The notes under the pieces: generated by a model
What the model was told of the DNA's origin: nothing
Database searches by the model: none
What the model saw: the letters and a program-made list of their open reading frames with translations, nothing else
IMG/VR virus record: IMGVR_UViG_3300028840_008158
DNA length: 57,056 nt
From: an uncultured virus (IMG/VR IMGVR_UViG_3300028840_008158)
Taxonomy: Duplodnaviria; Heunggongvirae; Uroviricota; Caudoviricetes
Direction: 5' to 3' (one strand)
Shown: positions 3,037-28,789 of the stretch, in pieces
Numbering within the stretch: the stretch's first letter is position 1
Layout: the number at the start of each line of letters is the position of its first letter
Position numbers and translations under genes: made by a program

Positions 3037-3113
3037 TGGATCTCCCCCTGTCGTCATCTTACGTCCCTTGCGCGAGCCCTCCTGCATGGTATGATGAATA
3101 CGAGGAGGACGTC

Positions 3114-3284
3114 ATGGCCAACAAGGAGAAGACGGAGAAGGACGCCTGGAAGAAGGTTTCCGACAGCGCCGAGGAGATGGTCTCGTCCATCGAGAAGGGC
3201 GGCAGCGAGGCCTCGATCAAGAAGGCGACTGACAAGTTCCGGGGGGCGTCCTCGGACTACATGAAACTTGTCTCCAAAAAATAA
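3114..3284 (+). CDS. small hypothetical protein
   Basis: GAGGAGG RBS, TATGAT upstream, 56 aa. Confidence 0.55.
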   Translation: MANKEKTEKDAWKKVSDSAEEMVSSIEKGGSEASIKKATDKFRGASSDYMKLVSKK

Positions 3285-3295
3285 AGGAATTGGGC

Positions 3296-3324
3296 TTGCG
3301 GCGTCCAATCTATTGGTGTATTAT
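3296..3324 (+). promoter_or_regulatory. sigma70-like promoter of tRNA array 1
   Basis: TTGCGG-17 nt-TATTAT with A-rich UP-like tract upstream. Confidence 0.65.
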
Positions 3325-3383
3325 GATTCTAGCGAGGCCGGGACCCTGACTAGGGCCGGCCCTTGAGCCAAGGATCGAGGATC

Positions 3384-3440
3384 ATGTCAAGAAACGGTTG
3401 TCGGTTTAACGGTAGGATGAATCGAGGGCTGAGCCCTTGA
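3384..3440 (+). CDS. attenuator leader peptide 1 (MSRNGCRFNGRMNRGLSP)
   Basis: AAGGA/GAGGA RBS; codons AGA, CGG, AGG, CGA, GGT x2, GGG, TGT, TTT, ATG x2 match every anticodon type of array 1; stop codon lies in the antiterminator arm. Confidence 0.75.
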   Translation: MSRNGCRFNGRMNRGLSP

Positions 3441-3501
3441 GCGAAGTCGTTTTTCCCCGACGACGCTTGAGGGCGAGCCAGAGGCTCGCCCTTCTTGTTT
3501 T
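3433..3501 (+). terminator. attenuator 1: antiterminator (3433-3443 with 3464-3474) overlapping intrinsic terminator (3469-3493 plus U tract)
   Basis: GCCCTTGAGCG/CGCTTGAGGGC 11 bp incl. 2 G-U; GAGGGCGAGCC-AGA-GGCTCGCCCTT then CTTGTTTT. Confidence 0.8.
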
Positions 3502-3507
3502 CGGGGA

Positions 3508-3521
3508 GGATCTTTGACAAG
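3508..3521 (+). promoter_or_regulatory. boxA-like antitermination motif
   Basis: GGATCTTTGACAAG; TCTTTGACAAG repeated at 9970-9980 in the same position relative to terminator and first tRNA. Confidence 0.55.
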
Positions 3522-3539
3522 CGAATAAGCCGGACGCGC

Positions 3540-3616
3540 CCAGGGGTGGTGTAGGTCGGTCTGCACGCCTGCCTGAAGAGCAGGAGGTACTGGTTCGATT
3601 CCAGTTCCCTGGGCCA
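3540..3616 (+). tRNA. tRNA-Phe(GAA)
   Basis: cloverleaf, anticodon arm CCTGC-CTGAAGA-GCAGG, TTCGATT, CCA. Confidence 0.85.
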
Positions 3617-3620
3617 GTTC

Positions 3621-3696
3621 CCAGGGGTAGTGTAGTTGGATGGCACGCGACCCTGAAGACGTCGAGGCGGCGGTTCGAATCCGCCCCCCTGGACCA
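3621..3696 (+). tRNA. tRNA-Phe(GAA)
   Basis: CCAGGGG/CCCCTGG acceptor, loop CTGAAGA, TTCGAAT, ACCA. Confidence 0.85.
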
Positions 3697-3743
3697 TTTA
3701 ACTCAAACGAGGAACAAACGTTACGTTGTAGGATGAAAGTAAG

Positions 3744-3929
3744 ATGACGAAGTTGAAGAAGGACCTTGCCCTGAAGTTGTACAGGCTTAGGGAGAAGGAC
3801 GAGAGACTGTACGAGGAATGCATGACCGTCCTCCCGCGAGACGTTCGCGACGAGGTGACGGACGCCATGCAACTCATGGTCCTGCTGGACGAGCAGGAAC
3901 GGAGAGAAGAGATTGTCGCGGGCGGCTAG
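3744..3929 (+). CDS. small hypothetical protein inside tRNA array
   Basis: 61-aa ORF; stop codon lies inside the next tRNA gene. Confidence 0.5.
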   Translation: MTKLKKDLALKLYRLREKDERLYEECMTVLPRDVRDEVTDAMQLMVLLDEQERREEIVAGG

Positions 3930-3992
3930 GCGTGGTCGTCTGGCGGGGCTCATATCCCTGCAATCGGGGTTCGATTCCCTGGCCCGCTACCA
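3917..3992 (+). tRNA. tRNA-Met(CAT), initiator-like
   Basis: C1:U72 mismatch, three G-C pairs closing loop CTCATAT, ACCA. Confidence 0.75.
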
Positions 3993-4078
3993 AATCAAGT
4001 CCCCTCCGACCGCAAAGACCCGGTCATCCGGCCGCACCGGCCCTGATGGATTACCGGCGAGCTTCCGAGGGGCGAAAA

Positions 4079-4151
4079 AGCGACGACGGCGTAGAGTCGA
4101 CCTAGCTCTCATAAGGCTGGGGAGAGGGTGCGATCCCCTCCGTCGCTACCA
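4079..4151 (+). tRNA. tRNA-Met/Ile2(CAT), atypical
   Basis: AGCGACG/CGTCGCT acceptor, loop CTCATAA, T-loop TGCGATC, ACCA. Confidence 0.65.
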
Positions 4152-4155
4152 GATT

Positions 4156-4231
4156 CGCCGCGTAGCCAAGCGGGCAAGGCGACGGATTGCAACTCCGTTA
4201 CGCGCTGGTTCGAATCCAGCCGCGGCGTCCA
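4156..4231 (+). tRNA. tRNA-Cys(GCA)
   Basis: ACGGA-TTGCAAC-TCCGT, U73, CCA. Confidence 0.9.
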
Positions 4232-4238
4232 AGATCGA

Positions 4239-4315
4239 CGCAGGGTGGAGCAGCCTGGCAGCTCGCCAGCCTCATAAGCTGGAGGTCGGAGGTTCGAATC
4301 CTCTCCCTGCTACCA
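4239..4315 (+). tRNA. tRNA-Met(CAT), fMet-like acceptor
   Basis: CGCAGGGTGGAGCAGCCTGG start, CCAGC-CTCATAA-GCTGG, ACCA. Confidence 0.9.
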
Positions 4316-4318
4316 AAC

Positions 4319-4394
4319 GTGGGTGTGGTGTAGCGGCTCTGCACGCGACCTTGCCAAGGTCGAGGTACCGGTTCGACCCCGGTCATCCACTCCA
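4319..4394 (+). tRNA. tRNA-Gly(GCC)
   Basis: CGACC-TTGCCAA-GGTCG, TCCA end. Confidence 0.9.
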
Positions 4395-4395
4395 A

Positions 4396-4469
4396 GCTGG
4401 CGTAGCTCAATGGTAGAGCACTTGGTTCCCAACCAAGGTACGGGAGTTCGATTCTCCTCGTCAGCTCCA
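4396..4469 (+). tRNA. tRNA-Gly(CCC)
   Basis: CTTGG-TTCCCAA-CCAAG, TCCA end. Confidence 0.9.
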
Positions 4470-4480
4470 AAGGAGGCCAA

Positions 4481-4741
4481 ATGGCCCATTTCGTGTTCGT
4501 GATAGACGACAAATTCGTGTACAAGCGGCTGGCGCCGGACAAGCGAGAGGCCGAGAAGCACGCCGCGGAGAAATATCCAGGGGCGAAAGAAATCAAGTTC
4601 GTGGGCAAGAACAGCGACCCAAACGACCGTGGATGGACGATTTACGACAGGTGGACGAAGAAGATCGCGGCCAAGGAGGAGAAAGAGGCCAAGGATCAGG
4701 CGAAAAAAGAGGCGAAGGGTCCAGCAGAAGAGGTTCCATGA
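4481..4741 (+). CDS. hypothetical protein
   Basis: AAGGAGG RBS, 86 aa. Confidence 0.65.
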   Translation: MAHFVFVIDDKFVYKRLAPDKREAEKHAAEKYPGAKEIKFVGKNSDPNDRGWTIYDRWTKKIAAKEEKEAKDQAKKEAKGPAEEVP

Positions 4742-4780
4742 GGGCCACGGGATCTCCGCTCGTCTCATAGAACCTCCATA

Positions 4781-4855
4781 GGGGCAGATGGCAAACGGTG
4801 CGCCGAACGTCTGCAAAGCGTTTCTTAGCGGGTTCGACTCCCGCCTGCCCCTCCA
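4781..4855 (+). tRNA. tRNA-Cys(GCA)
   Basis: AACGT-CTGCAAA-GCGTT, GGGGCAG/CTGCCCC, TCCA. Confidence 0.85.
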
Positions 4856-4857
4856 GC

Positions 4858-4933
4858 TTCCCCGTGGTCCAAAGGACGAGGGCGCAGGCCTCCGGAGCCT
4901 GAGGTCCGGGTTCGATTCCCGGCGGGGATGCCA
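4858..4933 (+). tRNA. tRNA-Arg(CCG)
   Basis: CAGGC-CTCCGGA-GCCTG, TTCGATT, GCCA. Confidence 0.85.
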
Positions 4934-4948
4934 AACGAGGGGGTCGAC

Positions 4949-5185
4949 ATGAGCAACCGAATCCCGACCCGGATCGTCCCCCTGGATTGCGATTGCTGCG
5001 GCTCCCCCGTCCAGACGATGTCGAGCTGCCTTTTTTGCGAGGCGATCCTTTGCGTTGAATGCAAGATGGCTCACGACTGCGATGGCGGCACGAGTCGTCC
5101 CAGGGGCCTCAAGGCGGCGAGGAAGTCGTCGCGGCGAAGGAAGAAGCCCCGGAAGAAGCCGCGCAAGCCCCTTCGCAAGACCTAA
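4949..5185 (+). CDS. small Cys-rich Zn-finger protein with basic tail
   Basis: CDCC, CLFC, CVEC motifs; GAGGGG RBS. Confidence 0.5.
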   Translation: MSNRIPTRIVPLDCDCCGSPVQTMSSCLFCEAILCVECKMAHDCDGGTSRPRGLKAARKSSRRRKKPRKKPRKPLRKT

Positions 5186-5259
5186 GCCCCCGTAGTGTAA
5201 TGATAGCACGATCGTCTTCTAAGCGATCAGCCCAGGGTGAGTACCTGGCGGGGGTACCA
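5186..5259 (+). tRNA. tRNA-Arg(TCT)
   Basis: ATCGT-CTTCTAA-GCGAT; atypical T-loop GTGAGTA; ACCA. Confidence 0.8.
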
Positions 5260-5288
5260 ATTGACTTGAACGATGTTCTGGATACAAT

Positions 5289-5364
5289 GCCCTCGTAGTG
5301 TAGTGGAGCGCACGCGACGCTTCGAACGTCGAAGAGGCGGGTTCGATTCCTCCCGAGGGTGCCA
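5289..5364 (+). tRNA. tRNA-Arg(TCG)
   Basis: CGACG-CTTCGAA-CGTCG, GCCA. Confidence 0.85.
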
Positions 5365-5722
5365 AATGAGACAAATCTTGTTCGTAACGCCCGGGGGTCT
5401 CCGTCGCTCGTATTGCAACGCGGCCCCGTTTTCTTCCATCTGGGGGCGCAATGAGATGATCCGCGATGCGTGGCATAGAGACGCGCGTCGCCTGACGTTG
5501 ACGGCGGTGATCATTCATCATGCATGCCTCCCGGGCTTGGAAGACAGGCCGCTCTGATGAGACATCTCGTGAACGCGATCTACGATGGTTGCTGTGCCGA
5601 GGCGAGGCTCCATGTCCGTTCCGGCAGTCGGTTGAACATCATAGCGACGGTCATGGACGCCATGCGAAAGGTCGACTACGAATACACGTACGTGATGGAA
5701 GATTCGATGAAGAACAAAACGC

Positions 5723-5797
5723 GCCCCCGTAGTGTAGCGCATCGCACGGCTCCGTCCTAAGGAGCAAGGGAGGGTTGGACTCCTTCCGGGGGTACCA
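5723..5797 (+). tRNA. tRNA-Arg(CCT)
   Basis: GCTCC-GTCCTAA-GGAGC, T-loop TTGGACT, ACCA. Confidence 0.8.
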
Positions 5798-6037
5798 AAA
5801 GGAATCGGGAATGAGCTGCTTGTCGAGCTTCTTGTTGACGGACGAGGGACTTCCAGGATATCCCGCGCCCAGGTATGACATGCGCGTCGTATGGAATCCT
5901 CCTCATGCGCCCGTGATGGATAGCGGCGAGCTCATCTCCATGGGTTCGCGCCCGTGGTGGCGTCGCCATGCCATGATCGCGCCCTGGAACGGCGCGTTGA
6001 TCGAAGCCTACGAGTCGTGGGTATACGCCATGAAAGA

Positions 6038-6751
6038 TCAATCATAAAGCCCGATGGCGTGCTTGTACATGACCGAGAGCTTGTCCTCCAGGCCGCATTT
6101 GTTGCATCGCATCCTCTCGAGGTTGGCGGTCAGCTCCTCGGGCGTCGAGTCGATCGTACCGATCTTGTGGCAGAGCGGCGATTCGCCCGCGACGATGGTC
6201 CCGTCGACGTTGATGGACGGCGTACACATCTTGGCGCCCTGGCGCAAGAACTTGATCGCCTCCCTCACGTCCCCCGTGGAACGCGTCACGCTTCGCAGGT
6301 TGAAGCACGTCGGGGCTTGCTTGTCGCATTTGATCTCGTTGGCGACGGCCCTCCCCAGCGGAATGATCGTCCTTATGCGGTCCTCATACCGGAACAGGGG
6401 ATGATCGAACTTCTCGATCCTGGTCTTGTAGAAGCGCGGGTCGGCAGTGACCTGGACCCAAATCCCTAGCCTGATTACCTCCTCGCGCAGCGCGTCATCT
6501 TCCAGGAACATGCCGTTGCTGAGCATGACGACGCGGGACAGTCGTTCCGTGGCGACGGATAGGAACTCCAGCGCCCGGGGATGGTCCATGGGTTCGCCCC
6601 CGGAAACGAGCATGAAAGACAACGTGTTGGAATCAATGAAGTCGATGATCTTTCGGAACGTCTCCATGGTCATGTGCTCCCCGGAAGGGGACGCCTCGAC
6701 CATGCAATGAGGGCAGTTCATGCGGCATTTGTGGGTTATACGCACGAGCAT
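6038..6751 (-). CDS. radical SAM protein with C-terminal Cys cluster
   Basis: CRMNCPHC (CxxxCxxC), SGGEP, C-terminal CxxC. Confidence 0.85.
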   Translation of the reverse strand: MLVRITHKCRMNCPHCMVEASPSGEHMTMETFRKIIDFIDSNTLSFMLVSGGEPMDHPRALEFLSVATERLSRVVMLSNGMFLEDDALREEVIRLGIWVQVTADPRFYKTRIEKFDHPLFRYEDRIRTIIPLGRAVANEIKCDKQAPTCFNLRSVTRSTGDVREAIKFLRQGAKMCTPSINVDGTIVAGESPLCHKIGTIDSTPEELTANLERMRCNKCGLEDKLSVMYKHAIGLYD

Positions 6752-6803
6752 GCCTCGTCCTCCTGCCCGTGGGGACGGGCCTTCTTTTCACCTGACGTCC
6801 GGC

Positions 6804-6831
6804 TTGACATCGCTTGTCATGGGGGTAGGAT
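6804..6831 (+). promoter_or_regulatory. sigma70-like promoter
   Basis: TTGACA-16 nt-TAGGAT. Confidence 0.6.
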
Positions 6832-6851
6832 GACGTTGGAGGTGGAACGTC

Positions 6852-7025
6852 ATGAAGACCAGGAAAGAGGCGCGTTTCGGGACGCCGGAAGAGGTTCGTA
6901 ACCAGGTCGAGGAGTTGTACCAGAAGTACGGCTTTGGGAAAACGAACAAGAAGCCCAGGCTAAACGAGGACGAGCCCCCGGCGTGGGTCGTGGAAATCGC
7001 CGAGAAGGCGGCGAAAAAGGATTGA
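6852..7025 (+). CDS. 57-aa hypothetical protein (not in ORF track)
   Basis: GGAGGT RBS; MKTRKEARFGTPEEVRNQ...AEKAAKKD. Confidence 0.55.
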   Translation: MKTRKEARFGTPEEVRNQVEELYQKYGFGKTNKKPRLNEDEPPAWVVEIAEKAAKKD

Positions 7026-7030
7026 GTTGT

Positions 7031-7103
7031 GCGTCGATAGCTCAGCGGCAGAGCGTTCGGCTCTTTAACCGAATGGACGCAGGTTCGAGCCCTGCTCGGC
7101 GCA
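7031..7103 (+). tRNA. tRNA-like RNA, Lys-like, 8-nt anticodon loop (CTCTTTAA), no encoded CCA
   Basis: GCGTCGA/TCGGCGC acceptor, canonical D and T arms, TTCGG-CTCTTTAA-CCGAA. Confidence 0.7.
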
Positions 7104-7117
7104 TTGAAAATTGAGGT

Positions 7118-7193
7118 TGTTGGGTAGCTCAGCGGTAGAGCGTTCGGCTCATAATCCGAATGGACGCAGGTTCGAGCCCTGCCCCAACAACCA
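7118..7193 (+). tRNA. tRNA-like RNA, Met-like, 8-nt anticodon loop (CTCATAAT)
   Basis: TGTTGGG/CCCAACA acceptor, TTCGG-CTCATAAT-CCGAA, ACCA; arms almost identical to 7031-7103. Confidence 0.7.
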
Positions 7194-7215
7194 TCATATT
7201 ATCAAGGAGGGGATC

Positions 7216-8607
7216 ATGAACGAGCGTTTCAAGACCCGCGACGAATTCCTAAAGTACCTCCACGGGACGCTGGACGAGCGCGCCCGGCCGGAGGACGTCG
7301 GCCAGGCCATCCTGGCCGGAGAGAAGTTCCTTCCGCTCGCGTTGCCGAAGGCGCTCCGCAAGCGGCTCTCCTCGATGAAGCCGCTCCCGAGCTACATGTC
7401 GGCCGACTTCAAGCGCGTCGTCGGCGCCGAGAGCGCCGTCAAGGTGGCCAAGGACATCTTCCCCAAGAACGGCATCCCCGTCAAGGGGCTCAGCCCGGAC
7501 GACCCGGCGTCGATCCGCGCGTTCATCTCGAGGGCGTCGAAGGCTATCGGCAGGAAGGTCCGCGAGAACTTCGCCCAGAGGAAGAACCGGAAGGATCGCC
7601 GGAAGTCCAAGATCAAGCTGTCCAAGCGGCAGTTCAACAAGCTCTACAGGTTCATTTGCAGGCTCGAGGAGAAGGCCGAGCGCATGGAGCGCGAGGGCAT
7701 CCGGCGCGACATGACGATGGCGGCCAAGTCCAAGCTCGCCAGCAAGATCTCCTGGAGGGACTTCAAGAAGTCCGCCGCGTCCGCCGCGTTCATCGCCTAC
7801 TACACGGCGACCAGCAACCGCCGCAGCGAGTTCACGTGGGGCAAGCAGTCTCGCGCCTACGACAAGGTGGCGGAGTCCCTGCTCGAGGAGGTATGCGCGA
7901 AGGACAAGTCCTCCAATTGGTTCGCCATCTCCCACGTCTTCACGCCGCAGCGCGTGGTCTCCAGGCTGACCGACAAGCAGAAGGGTCGCCTGGCGGGGCT
8001 CTACTTCGGCGTGGTCGAGCAGGCTTGCCTCATCATGGAGGAGGTCTGGCGCGACAACGACATCGCCCGCGACACGATGATCGTGAAGCGTGGCAACGAC
8101 AGCTCGACGTGGAACACGATGGCCGGCGCCTACAACAAGGCCCGCGAGGCTTGGTTCGCCATCCTCAGGGACATGGGCATGGACGCCGTCATCGAGGCTT
8201 GCTGCCCCGGGAAGGCGCTCCGGCTCATGGCCGCCGACGTCGCGTGGATGCATCGCCACTTCAACGAGGGGCTCGACCCGGACACGTCCGTCTGGAACGA
8301 GCTGCCGCTCCCGTGGGACGTCGTGCTCCACGAGGTTCCGTGCCCGCGCAAGATGGTCCAGGCGGTATGCGACAAGCACAAGGTCAAGTCCTCGGGCGGC
8401 TGGGTCGCCGCGCGCGACATCAAGGTCGCGCAGGCGTTCAAGGCCACGCCGGAGCTGGTCCACGGCGTTACCGTCTCCAGCCCGTCCCTCGGCAAGATCC
8501 TAAAGAAGTCGGGGGCGTTCTCGGGCAAGGGGCTCAGGCGCGACGCCAAGATGCCCGGCATCATCAAGAAGCACAAGAACAGGCGCGTGGTCGTCGACAA
8601 GGAGTGA
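7216..8607 (+). CDS. 463-aa basic hypothetical protein
   Basis: AAGGAGG RBS, strong GC3 coding bias; no motif I can assign. Confidence 0.85.
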   Translation: MNERFKTRDEFLKYLHGTLDERARPEDVGQAILAGEKFLPLALPKALRKRLSSMKPLPSYMSADFKRVVGAESAVKVAKDIFPKNGIPVKGLSPDDPASIRAFISRASKAIGRKVRENFAQRKNRKDRRKSKIKLSKRQFNKLYRFICRLEEKAERMEREGIRRDMTMAAKSKLASKISWRDFKKSAASAAFIAYYTATSNRRSEFTWGKQSRAYDKVAESLLEEVCAKDKSSNWFAISHVFTPQRVVSRLTDKQKGRLAGLYFGVVEQACLIMEEVWRDNDIARDTMIVKRGNDSSTWNTMAGAYNKAREAWFAILRDMGMDAVIEACCPGKALRLMAADVAWMHRHFNEGLDPDTSVWNELPLPWDVVLHEVPCPRKMVQAVCDKHKVKSSGGWVAARDIKVAQAFKATPELVHGVTVSSPSLGKILKKSGAFSGKGLRRDAKMPGIIKKHKNRRVVVDKE

Positions 8608-8778
8608 GGCGATGGAGCGCTGCGTTTGCCGGTCCCGCGTCCCCCTCGGATTGATGTCCGTCGTTTCCGAGGACGCTGAGATCCGGGCCCAGCGGGCGTG
8701 GGAGAGGGGCGTCGGACGGACGCACGGGCGCGCTATTACCGACTTCATCATCAAGAGGATGGGACGAAGGGGGTTCCA

Positions 8779-9183
8779 ATGAGCCCGGAGAAGGACGCCG
8801 AGCTGGTCCGAAAATACCCCATGCTTTACGCCCAGCGGGAAGGCCGCATGTCCGAAACCTGCATGTGCTGGGGGTTCGAATGCGACGACGGCTGGTACTC
8901 GCTCATCGACGAGTTGTCCGCCAGGCTGGAGGGGCTCAACCGGGAGATCGCTTCCGGGGGCGGCCTCCCCATCGAGGCTTGCCAGGTGAAGGAGAAGTTC
9001 GGGACCCTTAGGTTCTACACGGACGCGGTACCAGGCGAGCATTCCGACCAGGTCGAGAAGTGGATCGAGGAGGCGGAGGAGAAGTCGGCGAGGACCTGCG
9101 AGCATTGCGGAAACCCCGGCAAGACGAGGGGCGGCGGGTGGATCATGACCTTGTGCGAGGATTGCGCCAAGGAACGAAGATGA
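8779..9183 (+). CDS. phage-type hypothetical protein (GW...QVKEKFGxLRFY...CExCG)
   Basis: motif pattern familiar from large phage genomes. Confidence 0.75.
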   Translation: MSPEKDAELVRKYPMLYAQREGRMSETCMCWGFECDDGWYSLIDELSARLEGLNREIASGGGLPIEACQVKEKFGTLRFYTDAVPGEHSDQVEKWIEEAEEKSARTCEHCGNPGKTRGGGWIMTLCEDCAKERR

Positions 9184-9725
9184 AAAGGCTCAACCTCAGA
9201 TGCGACGGGACGATCTTCCTCTCGGAGGACGCCGCGACGATCGTGGTGGGGAACGGCTACGCCTACGAGGGGAGGGCGCGGCCGACGTTCATGGACGAGT
9301 TCTACTTCTTCGGCCTGTCACACGTAGTCCCGATATCGTCGATCCCGAGGTGGCTCCTGGACGTTTGCAAATCCCCGGCCGGAAGGATGGGGACCGGGCT
9401 CGTGCCTTTCGTCGGGACGGCCGTCATGAGGGAGGAATCGGACCAGGTCGGCCTCTGGATCAACCGTGGCGAGACCATGGTCCTGAACCTGACCAAAGGC
9501 GTCCCGGTTTGGCGCAGGACGGCCGACGGGAACTTCATACCGTCCTGGGGCGCGACGTCCCTACAAGATTCGGATTCCCGAGGGAACCGAGCGCTGGACA
9601 GGATGAGGGAACTAGAGGGCGAAAGGCTCGATGTCTCCACGGTTCCGGGGTGGGCGGTGACCAAGACGAACGGCGATCCGGACCTGGTTTTGCCCAAGAA
9701 AAAATTTGGCAGGAAAATCTCTTGA
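9180..9725 (+). CDS. hypothetical protein
   Basis: ATGA coupling to upstream gene. Confidence 0.6.
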   Translation: MKRLNLRCDGTIFLSEDAATIVVGNGYAYEGRARPTFMDEFYFFGLSHVVPISSIPRWLLDVCKSPAGRMGTGLVPFVGTAVMREESDQVGLWINRGETMVLNLTKGVPVWRRTADGNFIPSWGATSLQDSDSRGNRALDRMRELEGERLDVSTVPGWAVTKTNGDPDLVLPKKKFGRKIS

Positions 9726-9750
9726 CGGCGGTCAAGATATAACGTAGGAT
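9722..9750 (+). promoter_or_regulatory. sigma70-like promoter of tRNA array 2
   Basis: TTGACG-17 nt-TAGGAT with A tracts upstream. Confidence 0.7.
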
Positions 9751-9789
9751 ACTCGTGAGGGCCAATGTTGGCCCCGGAGGAAACGGACG

Positions 9790-9885
9790 ATGTTCCGCTT
9801 AGGTTCAGGAAATGGATTGGCAGGACTCCTCGCGAGCGCGAGCGCGGATTCGCATGATTCCGCCCTGTCATATCGCGGCCCCTGA
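9790..9885 (+). CDS. attenuator leader peptide 2 (MFRLGSGNGLAGLLASASADSHDSALSYRGP)
   Basis: GGAGG RBS 9776-9780; 24 of 31 codons are Leu/Gly/Ser/Ala/Asp/His, the amino acids of array 2. Confidence 0.8.
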   Translation: MFRLGSGNGLAGLLASASADSHDSALSYRGP

Positions 9886-9946
9886 ACCGACCTAATTCTC
9901 AGGGAAGGTTCAGGGGCGAGCCCGAAAGGCTCGCCCCTTTCTTTTT
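9878..9946 (+). terminator. attenuator 2: antiterminator (9878-9888 with 9907-9917) overlapping intrinsic terminator (9912-9938 plus U tract)
   Basis: GCCCCTGAACC/GGTTCAGGGGC perfect 11 bp; AGGGGCGAGCC-CGAAA-GGCTCGCCCCT then TTCTTTTT. Confidence 0.85.
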
Positions 9947-9966
9947 GCCGGAAGACGGAAGACGTA

Positions 9967-9980
9967 GGTTCTTTGACAAG
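9967..9980 (+). promoter_or_regulatory. boxA-like antitermination motif
   Basis: GGTTCTTTGACAAG, second copy of the 3508-3521 motif. Confidence 0.55.
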
Positions 9981-9999
9981 AGAAGATGGCCGTCAATGT

Positions 10000-10074
10000 G
10001 GTGGCTATGGTGTAATGGTAGCCCGCTTGCCTGTGGCGCAAGAGGCCCGGGTCCGATTCCCGGTAGTCACCCCA
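10000..10074 (+). tRNA. tRNA-His(GTG)
   Basis: G-1/C73, CTTGC-CTGTGGC-GCAAG, CCA. Confidence 0.9.
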
Positions 10075-10084
10075 ATACATACGT

Positions 10085-10161
10085 GGCGTGGTGGCCCAAC
10101 TGGCAGAGGCGAACGGCTCAGAACCGTTTTGTTGGGGGTTCGACTCCCCCCCACGCTACCA
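10085..10161 (+). tRNA. tRNA-Leu(CAG), short variable loop
   Basis: AACGG-CTCAGAA-CCGTT, 5-nt variable region, ACCA. Confidence 0.85.
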
Positions 10162-10355
10162 TTACTGAGTTTCTACGAGGACATTTACGGAAAGAGCGGA
10201 AATGGACAAGGAGATTCCTACCCCGTAAGCACGACGGCAGCGTCCTAGTGGCGTCTGGGCAATGGGAGGCCAAGTAACCGGCGGCCGCGATAGCCACCGG
10301 CGAAAGCGCCAACTGCCAAGGGGATAAGCGCGGAACACGCCGCCGCCGCGCGGGA

Positions 10356-10426
10356 TGCCCGGTAGCTCAACGGCAGAGCAGCCCCCAGAGAGGGGGAAGA
10401 TGCGGGTTCGAATCCCGTCCGTGGTA
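10356..10426 (+). ncRNA. tRNA-like element with 5-nt loop (AGAGA) instead of an anticodon loop
   Basis: TAGCTCAACGGCAGAGC D arm, CCCCC-AGAGA-GGGGG, GCGGG-TTCGAAT-CCCGT; bulged acceptor, no CCA. Confidence 0.6.
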
Positions 10427-10427
10427 C

Positions 10428-10492
10428 TGGTTCTCGTCCAAAGTAGGACGCCGCCCGCAAGGCGGAAATCGGGGTGCAAGTCCTCGGAGCCA
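10428..10492 (+). ncRNA. tRNA-like element with 5-nt loop (CGCAA)
   Basis: TGGTTC/GAGCCA stem, GTCC/GGAC D arm, CCGCC-CGCAA-GGCGG, CGGGG-TGCAAGT-CCTCG. Confidence 0.55.
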
Positions 10493-10515
10493 ATTTCCTT
10501 TACCATTTCCACCAC

Positions 10516-10592
10516 GGTCTTGAGGTCGAAGCAGTCGAGACGCCTGCCTGTCACGCAGGAGAAAGCGGGTGCGAGTCCCGTCCTGACCGCCA
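10516..10592 (+). tRNA. tRNA-Asp(GTC)
   Basis: CCTGC-CTGTCAC-GCAGG, GCCA. Confidence 0.85.
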
Positions 10593-10606
10593 TTTGCAAC
10601 AGATTT

Positions 10607-10682
10607 GGCGCGGTAGCCCAACGGCAGAGGCACATGCTTCAAACCCATGTCAGTGAGGGTTCGAGTCCCTCCCGCGCTACCA
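10607..10682 (+). tRNA. tRNA-Leu(CAA), short variable loop
   Basis: loop TTCAAAC, GGCGCGG/CCGCGCT, ACCA. Confidence 0.85.
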
Positions 10683-10687
10683 ACTTC

Positions 10688-10761
10688 GCGGGTGTAAGTC
10701 AATGGCAGACTACCTGGCTTCCAACCAGGATACGGGAGTTCGATTCTCCCTACCCGCACCA
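10688..10761 (+). tRNA. tRNA-Gly(TCC)
   Basis: CCTGG-CTTCCAA-CCAGG, ACCA. Confidence 0.9.
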
Positions 10762-10770
10762 AGACGAGAC

Positions 10771-10858
10771 GGAAGGCGAACCGGACGAGAGCGCCGGGGC
10801 TGGTTTGAAGCCAGCGCGTGCCCTCGGGCATGGGGGGCAGGACCTCCGCCTTCCGCCA
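10771..10858 (+). tRNA. tRNA-Ser(TGA)
   Basis: GCTGG-TTTGAAG-CCAGC, long variable arm, atypical T arm, GCCA. Confidence 0.75.
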
Positions 10859-10859
10859 C

Positions 10860-10947
10860 GGAAGACGAACCGGACAAGCGAGCCGGGACTGGTTCGAAGC
10901 CAGCGCGTGCCCTCGGGCATGGGGTGCAAATCCTCCGTCTTCCGCCA
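10860..10947 (+). tRNA. tRNA-Ser(CGA)
   Basis: loop TTCGAAG, long variable arm, GCCA; paralog of the preceding gene. Confidence 0.8.
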
Positions 10948-11059
10948 TGAAACGCGGGGTATCGGGCTTGGCTCCGACTCGGTACCCGAAACGCATCCAG
11001 ATCGGGCCCCATGAATCGGCGAGCCGGGGGCCGAAAAAGCGTAACCGGTACTGGAAACT

Positions 11060-11147
11060 GCGTGGTCGTCTAACGAACGCGGGGTACCCCGCAGGACGCC
11101 GCCACGAAAGGCGGAAATGGAGGGTTGAAGTCCCTCCCCACGCTCCA
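11060..11147 (+). ncRNA. tRNA-like element with 6-nt loop (ACGAAA) and a hairpin inserted in the D loop
   Basis: GCGTGG/CCACGC then TCCA, CCGCC-ACGAAA-GGCGG, GAGGG-TTGAAGT-CCCTC, palindrome GCGGGGTACCCCGC in D loop. Confidence 0.55.
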
Positions 11148-11148
11148 A

Positions 11149-11240
11149 GGAAGGCCGCCGGAGTCCGGAGAGCCGGGCCGGTTTGCTAAACCGGGGGCGT
11201 CATAAGCGCTCAGCGGGTTCGAATCCCGCGCCTTCCGCCA
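11149..11240 (+). tRNA. tRNA-Ser(GCT)
   Basis: CCGGT-TTGCTAA-ACCGG, long variable arm, GCCA. Confidence 0.85.
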
Positions 11241-11249
11241 GAAATTCGG

Positions 11250-11309
11250 GGGGGCGTCGTATGGCTGGCAGCCATGAGGTCACGGGTTCGAGCCCCGTCG
11301 CCTCCACCA
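11250..11309 (+). tRNA. D-armless tRNA-Ala(GGC) (60 nt; functional or pseudogene)
   Basis: GGGGGCG/CGCCTCC with G3:U70, only TCG between acceptor and anticodon arm, loop CTGGCAG, intact T arm, ACCA. Confidence 0.65.
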
Positions 11310-11317
11310 CGAGATTT

Positions 11318-11392
11318 GGGGGCGCATGTACCGTAGGGGCGAAAATCCCTCGCACGGATTTTGGGTGGGTGCAACTCCCATCGCCTCCACCA
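11318..11392 (+). tRNA. tRNA-Ala(CGC)
   Basis: G3:U70, AATCC-CTCGCAC-GGATT, ACCA. Confidence 0.75.
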
Positions 11393-11573
11393 TTTTTTGC
11401 AATGCAAAGGGTTTATCTTCCATTCTTCGCAACCTATGCGATTTCCAACCTGGAATGCGCCTGTAATACGCATCACGCGAAAAGGCATTTGAAGTTGGTA
11501 GACGGAGAATGGGTATACGATCTCAAGAGCCTTACTCCAAGAGAAATGCTCGGAACCATTCCTGATTGAAGGC

Positions 11574-11648
11574 GGGGCCATCGTCCAATGGGAGGACGCA
11601 AGCTCGGCAGGCTTGAAATGGCGGGTTCGAATCCCCCTGGCTCCACCA
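11574..11648 (+). tRNA. tRNA-Ala(GGC)
   Basis: G3:U70, CAAGC-TCGGCAG-GCTTG (C33), ACCA. Confidence 0.8.
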
Positions 11649-11656
11649 AGTTTTAA

Positions 11657-11731
11657 GGGCCCGTAGTGTAGTGGCGATCATGCCTGATTGTCGATCAGGC
11701 GACGGGGGTTCGATTCCCCTCGGGCCCGCCA
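11657..11731 (+). tRNA. tRNA-Asp(GTC)
   Basis: CCTGA-TTGTCGA-TCAGG, GCCA. Confidence 0.85.
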
Positions 11732-11734
11732 TCC

Positions 11735-11770
11735 TGGACCGAGTTCGCCATTTGGACCGAGTTCGCCATT
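11735..11770. repeat. 18-bp tandem duplication TGGACCGAGTTCGCCATT x2
   Basis: exact direct repeat just after tRNA-Asp. Confidence 0.85.
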
Positions 11771-11988
11771 ATCCACTGGACCAGCGTCCATGAATCAGGT
11801 CGGGAACCTGGGAATACTCTTCGGCTGAACGAATGGAATATTTCGTTGACGAAGACCCGGTCCTTCTCGACCATCAGATGAGGCGGCACGTGTTTGGCGA
11901 CGAAGTACCGGCCCTTCTTATGGGGGCCGGACTCCAAGGGGCAGATAGTCGTCGCGAAGTGGATCGAGTATCGCATGCAGGATCATAC

Positions 11989-12076
11989 GGAAGGTGAACC
12001 GGACAAGCGCGCCGGGGCTGCTTGGAAGGCAGTTCGTGCCTTAGGGCATGAGGGGCGGCACCTCCTCCTTCCGCCA
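11989..12076 (+). tRNA. tRNA-Ser(GGA)
   Basis: GCTGC-TTGGAAG-GCAGT, long variable arm, atypical T arm, GCCA. Confidence 0.75.
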
Positions 12077-12217
12077 TTTTCTCGAAAGGACTCCACTGGG
12101 TTTCTGATGATTCATCCATGAAAAACATCAACATCAGCCTCCCATGGCCGTTGGTCGTAGTCGGGATCGTTCTCGACATTGCGATGATCATCACGATCAT
12201 AATATTGTTGTTGTAGA

Positions 12218-12300
12218 GCGCAGGTGGCGGAACTGGCAGACGCGCTAGGTCGAGAGCCTAGTGGGAGACCGTGGGGGTTCGAATCCCCCCCTGCGCACCA
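12218..12300 (+). tRNA. tRNA-Leu(GAG)
   Basis: CTAGG-TCGAGAG-CCTAG, extended variable arm, ACCA. Confidence 0.85.
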
Positions 12301-12303
12301 TTT

Positions 12304-12379
12304 GGGGACCCATGTTCCAAGGGGGCGACGACGCCTTGCAAGCATCGTGAGCCGGGTTCGATTCCCGGGGTCTCCACCA
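12304..12379 (+). tRNA. tRNA-Ala(TGC)
   Basis: G3:U70, loop CTTGCAA, TTCGATT, ACCA. Confidence 0.8.
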
Positions 12380-12398
12380 TGCCTTTAAGGAGATGATC

Positions 12399-12757
12399 AT
12401 GAAGCGAAAGGACGAAATCCCCAAGAAGGACTCGCTTGGGCACCGATGGATGCCGAGACGGGGAAGGCAGTCGATCCTGCCCAACATCTGCGTTGAATGC
12501 GGCGCGATTTCCGGGACGGACGACGCCTGCAAGAAATGCAAACCATGACCGACGAGTACTTTTGCCACGTATGCGGGTTCAGGAAGAAGGTCGGGGGTCG
12601 CGAGGACGACGGTCCCATCGTCGTCAAGTCGGTCCCGATGCAGCTCAAGGTGATCTACTCGTGTTCAAGGGTCAAGAACATTGCCGATACGGAGATCAGG
12701 CACGTCGTCAAGGAGCATGGGATTCCTCGTCGTCAGGGGAGCGGGGATGAGTCCTGA
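12399..12757 (+). CDS. two coupled small CxxC proteins (12399-12548 and 12545-12757)
   Basis: AAGGAG RBS, ATGA overlap, CVEC/CKKC and CHVC motifs. Confidence 0.45.
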
Positions 12758-12774
12758 GTATCAGCAGTATACAT

Positions 12775-12849
12775 GGCGCGGTGGCCCAACGGCAGAGGCG
12801 CGTGGCTTAGGCCCACGAGATGAGGGTTCGACTCCCTCCCGCGCTACCA
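12775..12849 (+). tRNA. tRNA-Leu(TAG), short variable loop
   Basis: CGTGG-CTTAGGC-CCACG, ACCA. Confidence 0.85.
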
Positions 12850-13067
12850 ATTCCGGTACCCTGGGACATGCAATGACGCGGCGACGGAGCGATGATGCAT
12901 GTTCGTCAGCACGATGGTCGGGGCGAGGTTGCCGAATCCCCCGATGATGTTCCTTCTGGGTGGTCCCGACAACATCCTGCCGTTGATGACCGAGATGACG
13001 TGATTCTCCAGGGGGATCACACCAGGAGGAGTCACGACTTTCTTGGCGAGGGAATAAACTAATTCGT

Positions 13068-13546
13068 TCATCGTCCTGCGATCCAATCCCATGCGCTAGC
13101 AACGCTATCGTCGCTTCTCGGTGACAGTAGCAATCTGAAAGTCCCGTCGGCTACGCGTTCGAAAGGGGCGTTGGTCCTGTCCATGTGTTCCCAGAGGATG
13201 TCCCCGTGATGTATCTCGCGTAGCCTTATCCATGGACTTCCCCATGGGACGTTCTCCATCGCGTTTCTGACGATCCTTTTTGTTTCGCCGGGATGTTCGT
13301 ATTCGACCGACACGTTGACGTGGTCTGGAATGAGCTTGTTGAGGACATCGGCAATGGGTCTCATTTCCCTTTTTCCTTTTTGGGGTTCATGAACCGGTCC
13401 ATGGACTTGATGATGTCCTCGGCCTTCATGGGGGGCTCGCACGTCCGACACCAATATCGAGGCCCGAACCCCATGTTCATCCCGAGGCCGGCCTCGTTCG
13501 GGTTGATCTCCTTGTCGCATTTGAAGCATCTTACTTTTTCGCCCAT
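13068..13546 (-). CDS. two small antisense hypothetical ORFs (13361-13546 with CxxC motifs; 13068-13364)
   Basis: AGGAAG and AGGGA RBS-like motifs, ATGA coupling. Confidence 0.5.
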
Positions 13547-13561
13547 CTGTCTTCCTTTCGT

Positions 13562-13638
13562 GGCGCGGTAGGCCAATCGGGAGAGCTAGGACACTTAAAA
13601 TGTCCGGGTTGAGGGTTCGACTCCCTCCCGCGCTACCA
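13562..13638 (+). tRNA. tRNA-Leu(TAA), short variable loop
   Basis: GGACA-CTTAAAA-TGTCC, ACCA. Confidence 0.85.
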
Positions 13639-13832
13639 ATTCTCGAATGCGATCCGCGTGTATCTCGACGAGGGATTCATGAGGCACGTCGTCGAGCAAC
13701 CAATTTCGAATGAAATGACCGTTCCTGTTGTATATCTGCAAACGTACGAAAATTTTGGGGCATATAACGACTTCTTCGGCGATGGATTTGCGTTCCCCCG
13801 AGCCCATGTTATACTTCGTGTAGGAGGGCGCC

Positions 13833-14219
13833 ATGAGGTTGATCCTTTTCCTGATGATGCTGTTCCCGGCCACGGCTCTGGCGCGTTCCTGCGACCCGTG
13901 GCAGATGAGGGTCGTCTACCCCCAAACGCGTACGGTCGTCATTTTCGTCCATCATAATCCTCCGGTCAAGACAATAAGGCGCATGCCGGATCCGCCCGAG
14001 CCGATGCCAGGCTGGGGCCGGATTCCGGGCCCCAACGAGAAGAGGTTCGTCAACGGGAGCGCCCGGAAACCCAAGGTCGACCAATACGAGAAGTGGAAGG
14101 CATCGAGGGGGGGCGACGCCAAGCCGGACGACTCAGGGGATCGCCGGAAGCGGGTCGAGGAGATTCGAAGGACGAGGGAGTTCATCATGGACGCCCTGTC
14201 CCGAGAGGAGGACGAGTGA
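13833..14219 (+). CDS. secreted hypothetical protein
   Basis: AGGAGG RBS, signal peptide ending ALA. Confidence 0.6.
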   Translation: MRLILFLMMLFPATALARSCDPWQMRVVYPQTRTVVIFVHHNPPVKTIRRMPDPPEPMPGWGRIPGPNEKRFVNGSARKPKVDQYEKWKASRGGDAKPDDSGDRRKRVEEIRRTREFIMDALSREEDE

Positions 14220-14460
14220 GTCGTCGATACCTGTACGCGAGGCGCCCGCGCCTGTCCCATTACGGGGGGCCTCTCCACGTCGAGTTCAAGTGGAGATCGG
14301 CTTGGCCGGGCCACGCGGATAGGGGACGTGATCACGTCGTCCTCAAGACGCCCGTCGAGATGGACGCGTTCCGCGAAATAGCGAATGCGTTCGTGACGTG
14401 GCCTAAGGTCGATTCGTGGTCCTCCATGTACGACAGCGTTAGGCTGCGTTGCGGGGGGGA

Positions 14461-14745
14461 ATGATGGCGTATGATCATTACATGAGGACTCCGGAACAGT
14501 TCATCGACGACATGCTGGAACGCGGGCGCCATTGGACGGCCATCTTGTCGGTCGCTCGGGTCATTCGGGGGGGATCATGGGCGGCGAAGGTCAAGGGCAT
14601 CCTGAGAGACAGGAAGATCGTCCCCGGCGACGACGAGAAGCTGAACGCGGCTAGGGACAAGATGCTGAAGGAGGACGTTCGGCGCCAGCAAGATCGAGAG
14701 AAGCGCGAGAAGAGGGAGCGACACCGGAGAAGGAAGAAGAAATGA
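14461..14745 (+). CDS. hypothetical protein with basic C-terminus
   Basis: coupled ORF chain. Confidence 0.55.
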   Translation: MMAYDHYMRTPEQFIDDMLERGRHWTAILSVARVIRGGSWAAKVKGILRDRKIVPGDDEKLNAARDKMLKEDVRRQQDREKREKRERHRRRKKK

Positions 14746-15212
14746 AGCCCAAGGCGACCAAGTTCGTCGTGATGGACGAGTACAGCGTGGCCAAGTACGA
14801 GTGCGACGAGCCTCACATAGTGATATCCATTCGGAGCCCTTCCGGCGAGCGGGTAAGGCTCCCCAAGAACGACTTGCGGATGGATACGCTATGGCTCGCC
14901 TTTCATGACGTCGACGATACCGAGGGGGGACAGCAGGCGCGCCACATGATCAAGGTCCTCCGAGAGGAACCCGTCATCTTCAGCCTCAAGATGGCGCGCA
15001 AGGTTTTGGACTTCGTCGAGCGGAACGCCGAGGCGACGACCATCGTCGTCAACTGCGAGGCCGGGATCAGCCGGAGCGCCGGGGTCGCCGCCTCCTTGTC
15101 CAAGGTCTTGACGGGCGACGACGAGGAGTTTTTCAGGAGGTATTGCCCCAATACCACGGCGTACAAGAAGATAATGAAGGAGGCGGTCAAGAAGTGGGTA
15201 TGGTGTCAATAG
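14742..15212 (+). CDS. protein-tyrosine/dual-specificity phosphatase-like protein
   Basis: VNCEAGISRS (Cx5R P-loop), FHD acid loop. Confidence 0.8.
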   Translation: MKPKATKFVVMDEYSVAKYECDEPHIVISIRSPSGERVRLPKNDLRMDTLWLAFHDVDDTEGGQQARHMIKVLREEPVIFSLKMARKVLDFVERNAEATTIVVNCEAGISRSAGVAASLSKVLTGDDEEFFRRYCPNTTAYKKIMKEAVKKWVWCQ

Positions 15213-15269
15213 CGAGCATGCGAGCCTTCCAAGCTCGAGGGGAGGGTGCAAGTCCCTCTACCCACACCA
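15194..15269 (+). tRNA. tRNA-Gly(TCC)
   Basis: CGAGC-CTTCCAA-GCTCG, ACCA; overlaps end of phosphatase ORF. Confidence 0.8.
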
Positions 15270-15612
15270 ACATCTCCTTTTTACGGATTTTATTTTGATT
15301 CGTTTCTTTTGTGGCTGAATGGATTTCGGTTTCCAGCCTTTCGGAAACTTTTTCTGGCAACAGGGGCATGGGACGTAGGGTCCGCCATCACATCCACAGT
15401 AGGCCATTTAATTTATCCCCTTGAAGGGTCGCCACTCGTTGGGCGCTCCCATCAAAACGCGCCCATCAAAAATGGAATCCATGATCAACCGATTCATGCT
15501 TCGCTGCGTTTCTTTCCCATGGGCGAAGGCGTCGTTGGCCTTCCGCAATATCTTGATTCCGTAGCCGACCTCCAGGGAGCAAAGCACGACGGGAAAAGCG
15601 CCGCTGTACATC

Positions 15613-17724: not shown

Positions 17725-17979
17725 GGGGGAGCCCTCCTTCCCACTGTGTCTTTCTAAGAGGGCGTTACTTTCTCCTGCCACCAACCTTGGATACCTTCCA
17801 CCCGTATTCCGGGCTGTCCCGGTCCGATATGACGTTGCCGACGACGGCGTCCTTCTCGGGGACCCAGGCGACCCGCGTGGCCCCCCCGTACTTCAGGACG
17901 CATTGCCTTTCCATGGGATACCCCCCCGTATAATGAATGTCCTCGGGACCACGTATGATCCCCTCTAAAGGAGAAGACG

Positions 17980-24716: not shown

Positions 24717-24735
24717 AATTGACCAAGGAGGAAAC

Positions 24736-27589: not shown

Positions 27590-27608
27590 GGCCAGGAGGG
27601 GTTCGCGC

Positions 27609-28787: not shown

Positions 28788-28789
28788 GC

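Follow-up and report, generated by a model that had tools for sequence, protein, structure and literature searches.

In the 57,056-nucleotide stretch of uncultured-virus DNA recorded as IMG/VR IMGVR_UViG_3300028840_008158 (hereafter the window), two arrays of transfer RNA (tRNA) genes lie between positions 3296 and 15269, and each is preceded by a short leader open reading frame (ORF) whose codons match the anticodons of the tRNAs behind it far beyond chance. We consider it probable that each module is a ribosome-mediated (leader-peptide) attenuator that gates the matching tRNA block and senses decoding isoacceptor by isoacceptor. An earlier note on this DNA had proposed such attenuation, and the proposal is supported at the sequence level by the codon match, by the leader geometry, and by an ORF and helices that are kept in diverged relatives. 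Transcription would start at a sigma-70-like promoter, and a ribosome would then translate the short ORF, which lists the codons of the downstream tRNAs. With fast reading, the ribosome would arrive at the stop codon and cover the 5' strand of an antiterminator; once the antiterminator was blocked, a GC-rich terminator would fold and transcription would end ahead of the tRNAs. A hold-up at any listed codon would allow the antiterminator to form, which would remove the base of the terminator stem and let the polymerase enter the array. The outcome would be negative feedback, in which a tRNA set is made when, and only while, its decoding is slow. We infer the translation of the leader ORFs, the direction of the switch and its physiological trigger from sequence. 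The sensed variable is more likely to be isoacceptor tRNA supply than amino-acid supply, because each synonymous codon is listed once instead of one codon being repeated.

Twenty-four tRNA genes were called by ARAGORN, all on the + strand and extending from 3621 to 15269, and further ones were added by Rfam, a cloverleaf scan and unconstrained folds. Array 1 (3540–5797) holds nine distinct anticodons (GAA, CAT, GCA, GCC, CCC, CCG, TCT, TCG and CCT), and array 2 (10001–15269) holds fifteen (GTG, CAG, CAA, TCC, TGA, CGA, GCT, CGC, GGC, GTC, GGA, GAG, TGC, TAG and TAA). The two sets share no anticodon, as the earlier note had stated and as all four approaches bear out. The matches were scored under strict decoding, in which G34 decodes C and U, C34 decodes G, and U34 is restricted to A. 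The 17 sense codons that follow the ATG of leader 1 (TCA, AGA, AAC, GGT, TGT, CGG, TTT, AAC, GGT, AGG, ATG, AAT, CGA, GGG, CTG, AGC and CCT) cover all nine array-1 anticodons, and 10 of the 17 are cognate. The 30 codons of leader 2 cover 14 of the 15 array-2 anticodons, with CTA missing, and 22 of the 30 are cognate. The claim that each leader contains the codons read by its own array is thereby upheld, and the cross-matches are ordinary (leader 1 against array 2, 3/15; leader 2 against array 1, 2/9).

Across the six frames of the 57 kb, full coverage of the array-1 set was reached by 4 of 80,995 stop-free stretches of 17 codons, all four overlapping leader 1, and 14/15 coverage of the array-2 set was reached by 6 of 64,778 stop-free stretches, all overlapping leader 2. 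The comparison was repeated with anticodon sets from ARAGORN alone to avoid bias from hand-added tRNAs, and here leader 1 covered 8/8 (4 stretches, all self) and leader 2 covered 10/11 (12 stretches, 6 self). Nucleotide shuffles with an open frame equalled the observed coverage in 1 of 100,000 cases for each leader, in line with the expectation that real leaders would outperform shuffled ones. When the peptide was fixed and synonymous codons were redrawn by the usage of the element (29 ORFs, 10,352 codons), 296 (leader 1) and 114 (leader 2) of 100,000 redraws reached the observed coverage; with uniform synonymous choice, the numbers were 906 and 5,524 per 100,000. Because shuffles and synonymous redraws seldom reach the observed coverage, the match extends to codon choice as well as to amino acids. 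The Arg codons of leader 1 are exactly AGA, CGG, AGG and CGA, corresponding to the four Arg tRNAs of array 1. In leader 2, the Leu codons TTA, TTG, CTC and CTG correspond to 4/5 Leu anticodons, the Ser codons TCA, TCG, TCC and AGC to the four Ser anticodons, and the Ala codons GCA, GCG and GCC to the three Ala anticodons. Many listed codons are rare in the ORFs of the element (AGA 0.04, TTA 0.01, GCA 0.03 and TCA 0.05 of their families). The proposed partition of Gly codons between the leaders holds in part: GGG is confined to leader 1, and all three GGA codons are in leader 2, with tRNA-Gly TCC in array 2 of the window, whereas GGT and GGC, the codons of the array-1 tRNA-Gly GCC, are found in leader 2 as well. 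No collinearity between codon order and tRNA order was seen by eye.

The two modules (3296–3521 and 9722–9980) have a common layout, as previously described, consisting of a promoter, a Shine–Dalgarno sequence, a short ORF, an antiterminator, a GGGCGAGCC/GGCTCGCCC terminator, the motif TCTTTGACAAG and the first tRNA, and all of these parts are on the + strand. In module 1, which begins just downstream of a protein gene ending at 3284, the promoter read from the sequence (3296–3324) has a –35 TTGCGG (3296–3301), a 17-nt spacer and a –10 TATTAT (3319–3324), and it scores under the threshold of the consensus scan. It is followed by a 5' untranslated region (UTR) hairpin predicted by folding (3336–3361; outer stem GGCCGG/CCGGCC, inner stem CCCT/AGGG), a Shine–Dalgarno-like GAGGA (3377–3381) and leader ORF 1 from the ORF list (3384–3440; MSRNGCRFNGRMNRGLSP, 18 codons and TGA). 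The antiterminator 5' strand CCCTTGAGCG (3434–3443), which contains the stop codon (3438–3440), pairs with the 3' strand CGCTTGAGGG (3464–3473; identified by folding and helix conservation), which overlaps the base of the terminator stem by 3–5 nt. Terminator 1 (3469–3501) has an 11-pair stem at 3469–3493, a loop AGA and a T-rich tail to 3501, and an exact TCTTTGACAAG (3511–3521) stands 18 nt ahead of the first tRNA. Through a 14-nt direct repeat (93%) between 3359–3372 and 3433–3446, the antiterminator 5' strand is duplicated in the leader-1 5' UTR.

In module 2, the promoter scan identified TTGACG, a 17-nt spacer and TAGGAT (9722–9750), followed by a Shine–Dalgarno GGAGGA (9776–9781) 8 nt ahead of the ATG and by leader ORF 2 from the ORF list (9790–9885; MFRLGSGNGLAGLLASASADSHDSALSYRGP, 31 codons and TGA). 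Segment 1, GGTTCAGG (9802–9809; inverted repeat I3, direct repeat D3), lies inside the ORF and pairs with segment 2, GGCCCCTGAACC (9877–9888; inverted repeats I2 and I3), which contains the stop codon (9883–9885). Segment 3, GGTTCAGGGGC (9907–9917; inverted repeat I2, 11 nt, 100% complementary), pairs with segment 2 and overlaps the 5' arm of terminator 2 (9912–9947), an 11-pair stem at 9912–9938 followed by TTCTTTTTG; an exact TCTTTGACAAG (9970–9980) stands 20 nt ahead of the first tRNA. Both terminators were recovered as palindromes, as inverted repeats and by the terminator scan, and they are the two best terminator-like sites within 2900–15600. The palindrome GGGCGAGCC-N3-5-GGCTCGCCC occurs exactly twice in the 57,056 bases (3471–3491 and 9914–9936) and in none of 100 shuffles. 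Exact TCTTTGACAAG is found in the window at 3511 and 9970 only; the 12 other sites with one or two mismatches are at chance level (14 found versus 10.2 expected in all).

A scan of metagenome contigs with the combined terminator and motif pattern returned 79 loci, of which 74 were unrelated chance or coding matches, two were the window itself (L040 and L041, 0 mismatches) and three were relatives; the full palindrome with tRNAs behind it was present in 5/79. Two of the relatives, L031 (contig Ga0307376_10003821) and L079, are near-identical to each other, and L078 is distinct. Their tRNAs are 70–95% identical to those of the window, and their leaders, MDAKCCFRFIGRNRRMGRGPCL and MNSKCCFRFIGRSRSMGRGPCP, keep the leader-1 frame, with indels whose lengths are multiples of three. 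The flanks have changed around a conserved core of the codons TGT, CGG, TTT, GGT, AGR, ATG, CGA and GGG. The central AGA-AAC-AGG-CGC stretch of the relatives is missing from leader 1, which has AGA at codon 3, so that AGA, AGG, CGG and CGA are present in all three leaders. The expectation that leaders of related elements would also beat their shuffles held for the relatives, as both leaders cover 9/9 of the array-1 set of the window (3 of 50,000 shuffles each) and 3/15 of its array 2. The helix around the stop codon has 4/8 pairs changed on both sides across the relatives, and the corresponding figure for all predicted pairs is 5/50. The TTGCG and the TGGTGTA stretch ahead of the –10 are invariant between leader 1 and its two relatives, as is CGAGGA at the Shine–Dalgarno site, and, as read from the alignment, the outer 5' UTR stem remains paired despite changed sequence (GGACG/CGTCC, CGGG/CCCG). 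The duplicate of the antiterminator strand in the 5' UTR (3359–3372) is not obvious in the relatives. TCTTTGACAAG is kept in both, and TCTTTGACAAGnGAA, containing TTGACA, stands 17–20 nt ahead of the first tRNA in all four distinct leaders, that is, those of the window and of L078 and L079. The earlier description of the leader ORFs as ending in Pro-TGA applies to three of these four and fails for L079, which ends in Leu-TGA. In the relatives, whose arrays are visible for the first 4–8 tRNAs only, tRNA-Gly TCC sits behind a leader-1-type leader, and GGA is present in the leader of L078; the association between GGA in the leader and Gly TCC in the array fits 2/3 genomes.

The earlier note had predicted a further array with its own leader; the 440,765-base contig identical to the window contains the two copies of the terminator and motif pattern and no third one, and any third leader would have to consist of different sequence or be located elsewhere. 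In the viral collection, the pattern had one unrelated match with 0 tRNAs, and the terminator palindrome alone had 35 loci, none with a tRNA array. A scan of species genomes gave 80 loci, of which 0 had two or more tRNAs. A megablast of 3200–15400 against phage records matched only a tRNA-Met, in 4 Streptomyces phage records, and a scan via the 463-aa protein encoded between the arrays found no relative.

The RNA structure was expected to follow leader-peptide attenuation, and the predicted geometry agrees, with stop codons inside the antiterminator 5' strands of both modules (3434–3443 and 9877–9888) and helices that are mutually exclusive. Leader 2 carries three nested perfect inverted repeats, namely 1:2 (8 nt; 9802–9809 with 9881–9888), 2:3 (11 nt; 9878–9888 with 9907–9917) and 3:4 (11 nt; terminator arms 9912–9922 with 9928–9938), which is the textbook four-segment design of a trp-type attenuator. 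The antiterminator 3' strands overlap the terminator base by 3–6 nt in the two modules. Because the stop codons are 29–31 nt ahead of the terminator stems, a terminating ribosome cannot mask the terminator. When positions –15 to +12 around the A-site codon were kept unpaired to represent the ribosome, in equilibrium folding that does not capture kinetics, a mask on the last 4–5 codons or the stop gave a pairing probability of at least 0.95 for the terminator base in 4/4 leaders. Masks farther upstream lowered this probability at many positions: in leader 2 it did not exceed 0.27 for 12 of the first 13 sense codons and was 0.53 for the thirteenth, and in L078 neither the start codon nor any of the first 17 sense codons gave more than 0.39. 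Without a ribosome, the terminator probability of leader 2 was 0.97, with the 1:2 pairing present.

Some of the observations weigh against this attenuator reading. The drop in terminator probability is uneven, ranging from 0.00 to 0.88 in leader 1 and staying mostly at 0.7–0.95 in L079, and in these two leaders many upstream stalls still favour the terminator. Leader 1 has no clear 1:2 pairing, and read-through is predicted for it without a ribosome (terminator-base probability 0.15); in its relatives, where the 1:2 pairing is likewise not clear, the ribosome-free terminator probabilities are 0.67 and 0.20. A stall at CGA or GGG of leader 1 would cover the nearby antiterminator strand, and the conservation of these codons may be structural. 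The leader-1 Shine–Dalgarno sequence is only 2–3 nt from the ATG. Codons that are not cognate to the own array make up 7/17 of leader 1 and 8/30 of leader 2, and Asn codons occur four times, yet no Asn tRNA was seen. L079 has a Gly TCC in its array and no GGA in its leader. Moreover, not every tRNA need depend on its leader, considering the promoter-like site inside array 1 (5261–5288) and the opposite-strand ORFs within array 2.

The modules could also be real attenuators that report general translation capacity or amino-acid supply, not single isoacceptors, with the codon list mirroring the amino acids served. Any stall, including one from amino-acid starvation, would act alike on the structure, and much of the match (the 10/17 and 22/30 cognate codons) is at the amino-acid level; the synonymous choice, however, is non-random (the 296 and 114 of 100,000 redraws given above). 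Known amino-acid-sensing leaders use runs of one or two codons, and a leader that assigns one codon to each of four Arg, four Ser, three Ala and 4/5 Leu anticodons is unlike such sensors. We consider this explanation rather improbable. We give somewhat less credence still to a switch of opposite sign or other logic, in which efficient translation of the leader by the tRNAs of the element promotes read-through (feed-forward) or shields the transcript from Rho or nucleases. In its favour stands the predicted read-through of untranslated leader 1, and the repeat of the antiterminator strand within the 5' UTR (3359–3372) shows a switch that is more complex than our model. Against it, the distance of 29–31 nt between stop codons and stems means that a terminating ribosome covers the antiterminator strand and not the terminator, and masks on the last codons favour termination in 4/4 leaders.

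Two further explanations dispense with leader translation, and both appear very unlikely to us. In one, the terminators end upstream units, transcription of the arrays starts from an unrecognised promoter at TCTTTGACAAG, the ORFs are incidental and their codon content is due to chance. TTGACA is the –35 consensus and lies within a motif kept in 4/4 leaders, and the protein gene ending at 3284 would provide an upstream unit for module 1. We rejected TCTTTGACAAG as a promoter, given that no –10-like hexamer was seen by eye 16–18 nt after TTGACA in any of the 4 leaders. A separate promoter lies ahead of the ORF in both modules, downstream of the preceding gene; chance does not yield the codon match, and the ORF and helices are conserved with compensatory changes. 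In the other, to which we assign the smallest probability, the leader RNA is untranslated and senses tRNAs directly by codon–anticodon pairing, like the specifier of a T-box. The terminator/antiterminator logic is shared with T-box leaders, whereas no T-box or other riboswitch family was found in an Rfam scan at E values up to 1, and a Shine–Dalgarno sequence, a start codon, an open frame and frame-preserving indels are present. We know of no precedent for nine to fourteen different specifiers in one leader.

Leader-peptide attenuation is a textbook mechanism, known from genes for amino-acid synthesis or tRNA charging. A full-text literature search, at the level of titles and abstract beginnings, returned no description of leader-peptide attenuation of tRNA genes, and the Rfam scan of 3200–15400 at E up to 1 gave 41 matches, with no Trp, His, Leu, Thr or Phe leader family and no T-box among them. 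The multivalent attenuators of enterobacteria include the thr leader, with Thr and Ile codons, and the ilvGMEDA and ilvBN leaders, with Ile, Val and Leu codons. The modules described here resemble them in having a promoter-proximal ORF with codons for several amino acids, alternative 2:3 and 3:4 hairpins (and, clearly in leader 2, a 1:2 hairpin) and an intrinsic terminator, and in that a ribosome standing on the stop codon is predicted to promote termination. They differ in that the thr and ilv leaders regulate biosynthetic enzymes, whereas tRNA genes and small ORFs lie downstream here; in that codons occur there in runs, and here about once per isoacceptor, for up to 14 anticodons of 6 amino acids; and in their setting in a huge phage-like element. 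The pheM leader of pheST controls Phe-tRNA synthetase, a gene of the translation apparatus. Escherichia coli pheL, the pheA leader, ends in CCC UGA (PMC3082878), as leader 2 does. Both phe leaders sense one amino acid via runs of Phe codons, and neither is known to control tRNA genes. T-box riboswitches also sense tRNA status and switch a terminator and an antiterminator ahead of translation-related genes, but they bind uncharged tRNA directly, with no ribosome, whereas our modules have an ORF with a Shine–Dalgarno sequence.

Phage systems offer a second set of comparisons. According to the abstracts, the tRNAs of phage T5 counter tRNA-targeting defences, namely retron effectors and PARIS AriB (PMC11555353, PMC12409363). 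As in the present case, a mobile element carries its own tRNAs that are able to replace those of the host; these abstracts describe no decoding-based control of the tRNA genes. Streptomyces phage Wakanda (NC_070785), taken as a control with an ordinary tRNA cluster, similarly has many tRNA genes amid tiny ORFs, but its tRNAs are not grouped by amino acid, and nine upstream ORFs, inspected by eye, had no codon match or leader terminator. For example, the 29-aa ORF ahead of Ile GAT, Ser TGA and Asp GTC has 1 ATC, 0 TCA and 0 GAY.

If the attenuator reading is true, tRNA supply would be regulated codon by codon via the reading speed of the ribosome, which would explain the grouping of tRNA genes by amino acid in some large phages and would connect phage tRNA arrays directly, and in a testable way, with host tRNA shortage or destruction. 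The leaders would then be compact natural sensors of single-isoacceptor decoding that could be used as reporters of tRNA pools. A broader and much more tentative idea, which we hold to be doubtful, is that amino-acid-sorted tRNA regulons, each with an isoacceptor-resolved sensor whose leader lists every codon served, form an inducible and self-limiting replacement-tRNA system. Such a system would fire when host tRNAs are scarce or have been destroyed by tRNA-targeting defences and would turn off once the tRNAs of the element restore decoding, and it would belong to a type of tRNA-gene control that is widespread in phages and bacteria but so far undescribed.

The tRNA gene content of the arrays, all of it on the + strand, is richer than previously listed. 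In array 1, ARAGORN and Rfam both call tRNA-Phe GAA (3621–3696), Cys GCA (4156–4231), Met CAT (4239–4315), Gly GCC (4319–4394), Gly CCC (4396–4469), a further Cys GCA (4781–4855), Arg CCG (4858–4933) and Arg TCG (5289–5364), the last with the promoter-like site 5261–5288 just upstream, and ARAGORN calls Met CAT (3921–3992) and Arg CCT (5723–5797). A second Phe GAA (3540–3616; Rfam 55.8 bits, cloverleaf scan) and Arg TCT (5186–5259; Rfam 47.6 bits, cloverleaf scan, fold) are not called by ARAGORN at its default. A weak Met CAT with the T-loop TGCGATC (4079–4151) was found by Rfam at 23.2 bits, below the gathering score, and by the cloverleaf scan and a fold. The genes named for this array in the earlier note are all present; the second Phe, Arg TCT and the weak Met are additional to its list.

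In array 2, ARAGORN and Rfam both call His GTG (10001–10074), Leu CAG (10085–10161), Leu CAA (10607–10682), Gly TCC (10688–10761), Ala GGC (11574–11648), Asp GTC (11657–11731), Leu GAG (12218–12300), Leu TAG (12775–12849), Leu TAA (13562–13638) and a distant second Gly TCC (15194–15269); ARAGORN also calls Ala TGC (12304–12379) and, with support from a fold, Ser GCT (11149–11240). Three type-II Ser tRNAs were missed by both ARAGORN and Rfam and were recognised by folding: Ser TGA (10771–10858), which folds without constraints into a cloverleaf that has a long variable arm and ends in CCA, and whose T-loop is non-standard, Ser CGA (10860–10947), with the T-loop TGCAAAT, and Ser GGA (11989–12076). 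Ala CGC (11318–11392; G3:U70, T-loop TGCAACT) was found by the cloverleaf scan and a fold and by ARAGORN only at a relaxed threshold, a run whose 50 calls, many of them spurious, served solely as a cross-check for this gene. An Asp-like GTC with a weak acceptor stem (10516–10592; Rfam 40.9 bits, fold) completes the set. The earlier list for array 2 was likewise incomplete, lacking Ala CGC, the second Asp-like gene and Ser TGA, CGA and GGA. Small ORFs interrupt both arrays, and because opposite-strand ORFs intervene between about 12850 and 13560, Leu TAA and the second Gly TCC may lie outside the leader-2 transcript.

Several tRNAs in this region have unusual forms. Non-standard T-loops (TGCAAnT, TGCGATC, GGCAGGA) replace TTCGAAT in the tRNAs at 4079, 10771, 10860, 11318, 11989 and 15194. 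A mini tRNA-like RNA of about 60 nt (11250–11312; fold, and an ends-only Rfam match to transfer-messenger RNA of 38.2 bits, below the gathering score; not counted) has an Ala-type acceptor with G3:U70, a T arm and CCA, while one hairpin replaces its D and anticodon arms; the next gene, tRNA-Ala CGC, has the same acceptor stem. Degenerate tRNA-like elements at 10357–10429, 10426–10495 and 11060–11147 combine good T arms with broken acceptor stems or anticodon loops and may be decayed tRNA genes or small RNAs of a different kind. The first (Rfam 39.5 bits, fold) has a poor acceptor stem and a GAG in a non-standard loop and was left out of the anticodon set; the last (cloverleaf scan, fold) has acceptor and T arms without a standard anticodon loop and was not counted. 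Between the arrays, two tRNAs at 7031–7104 and 7118–7193 have near-identical bodies (Rfam 59.9 and 62 bits) and 8-nt anticodon loops, CTCTTTAA and CTCATAAT, to which ARAGORN assigns the four-base anticodons cttt and cata. This pair may decode quadruplets or act in a frameshift-type manner, or it may be inactive. Upstream of this pair lie a promoter-like site (6804–6831) and a Lys-rich 57-aa ORF (6852–7025), with no terminator in between.

The window has a GC content of about 0.60 and is identical to parts of a 440,765-base metagenome contig, and one of its proteins is recorded on a 546,851-base contig. Of four sequencing runs listed, two contain this DNA, and no RNA run that contains it is listed. 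It encodes replication and nucleotide-metabolism proteins (DnaE, RecA, class II ribonucleotide reductase, UvrD and a clamp loader) along with many orphan ORFs, and no structural or packaging genes were found within its 57,056 nt. Given this lack, and the absence of the element from the viral collection scanned, we call it a likely huge phage and no more. The small ORFs within the arrays had no informative match in Pfam or PHROG. The 463-aa protein between the two arrays (7216–8607) has no Pfam or PHROG family and 1204 homologues (E ≤ 0.001) in diverse bacteria and metagenomes, the two closest at 60–61% identity. Genes for a PrkA kinase, a DUF444 protein and a SpoVR-like protein (24571–31409), all three with strong PHROG matches and with a C5 cytosine methylase inserted between them, constitute a bacterial stress-kinase set carried by the element. 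Adjoining the arrays are genes for a protein with a caspase-like peptidase C14 domain (16834–17784, – strand) and for an AAA_21/AAA_15 ATPase (19241–20209, + strand), and domains of both types are common in defence or counter-defence genes.

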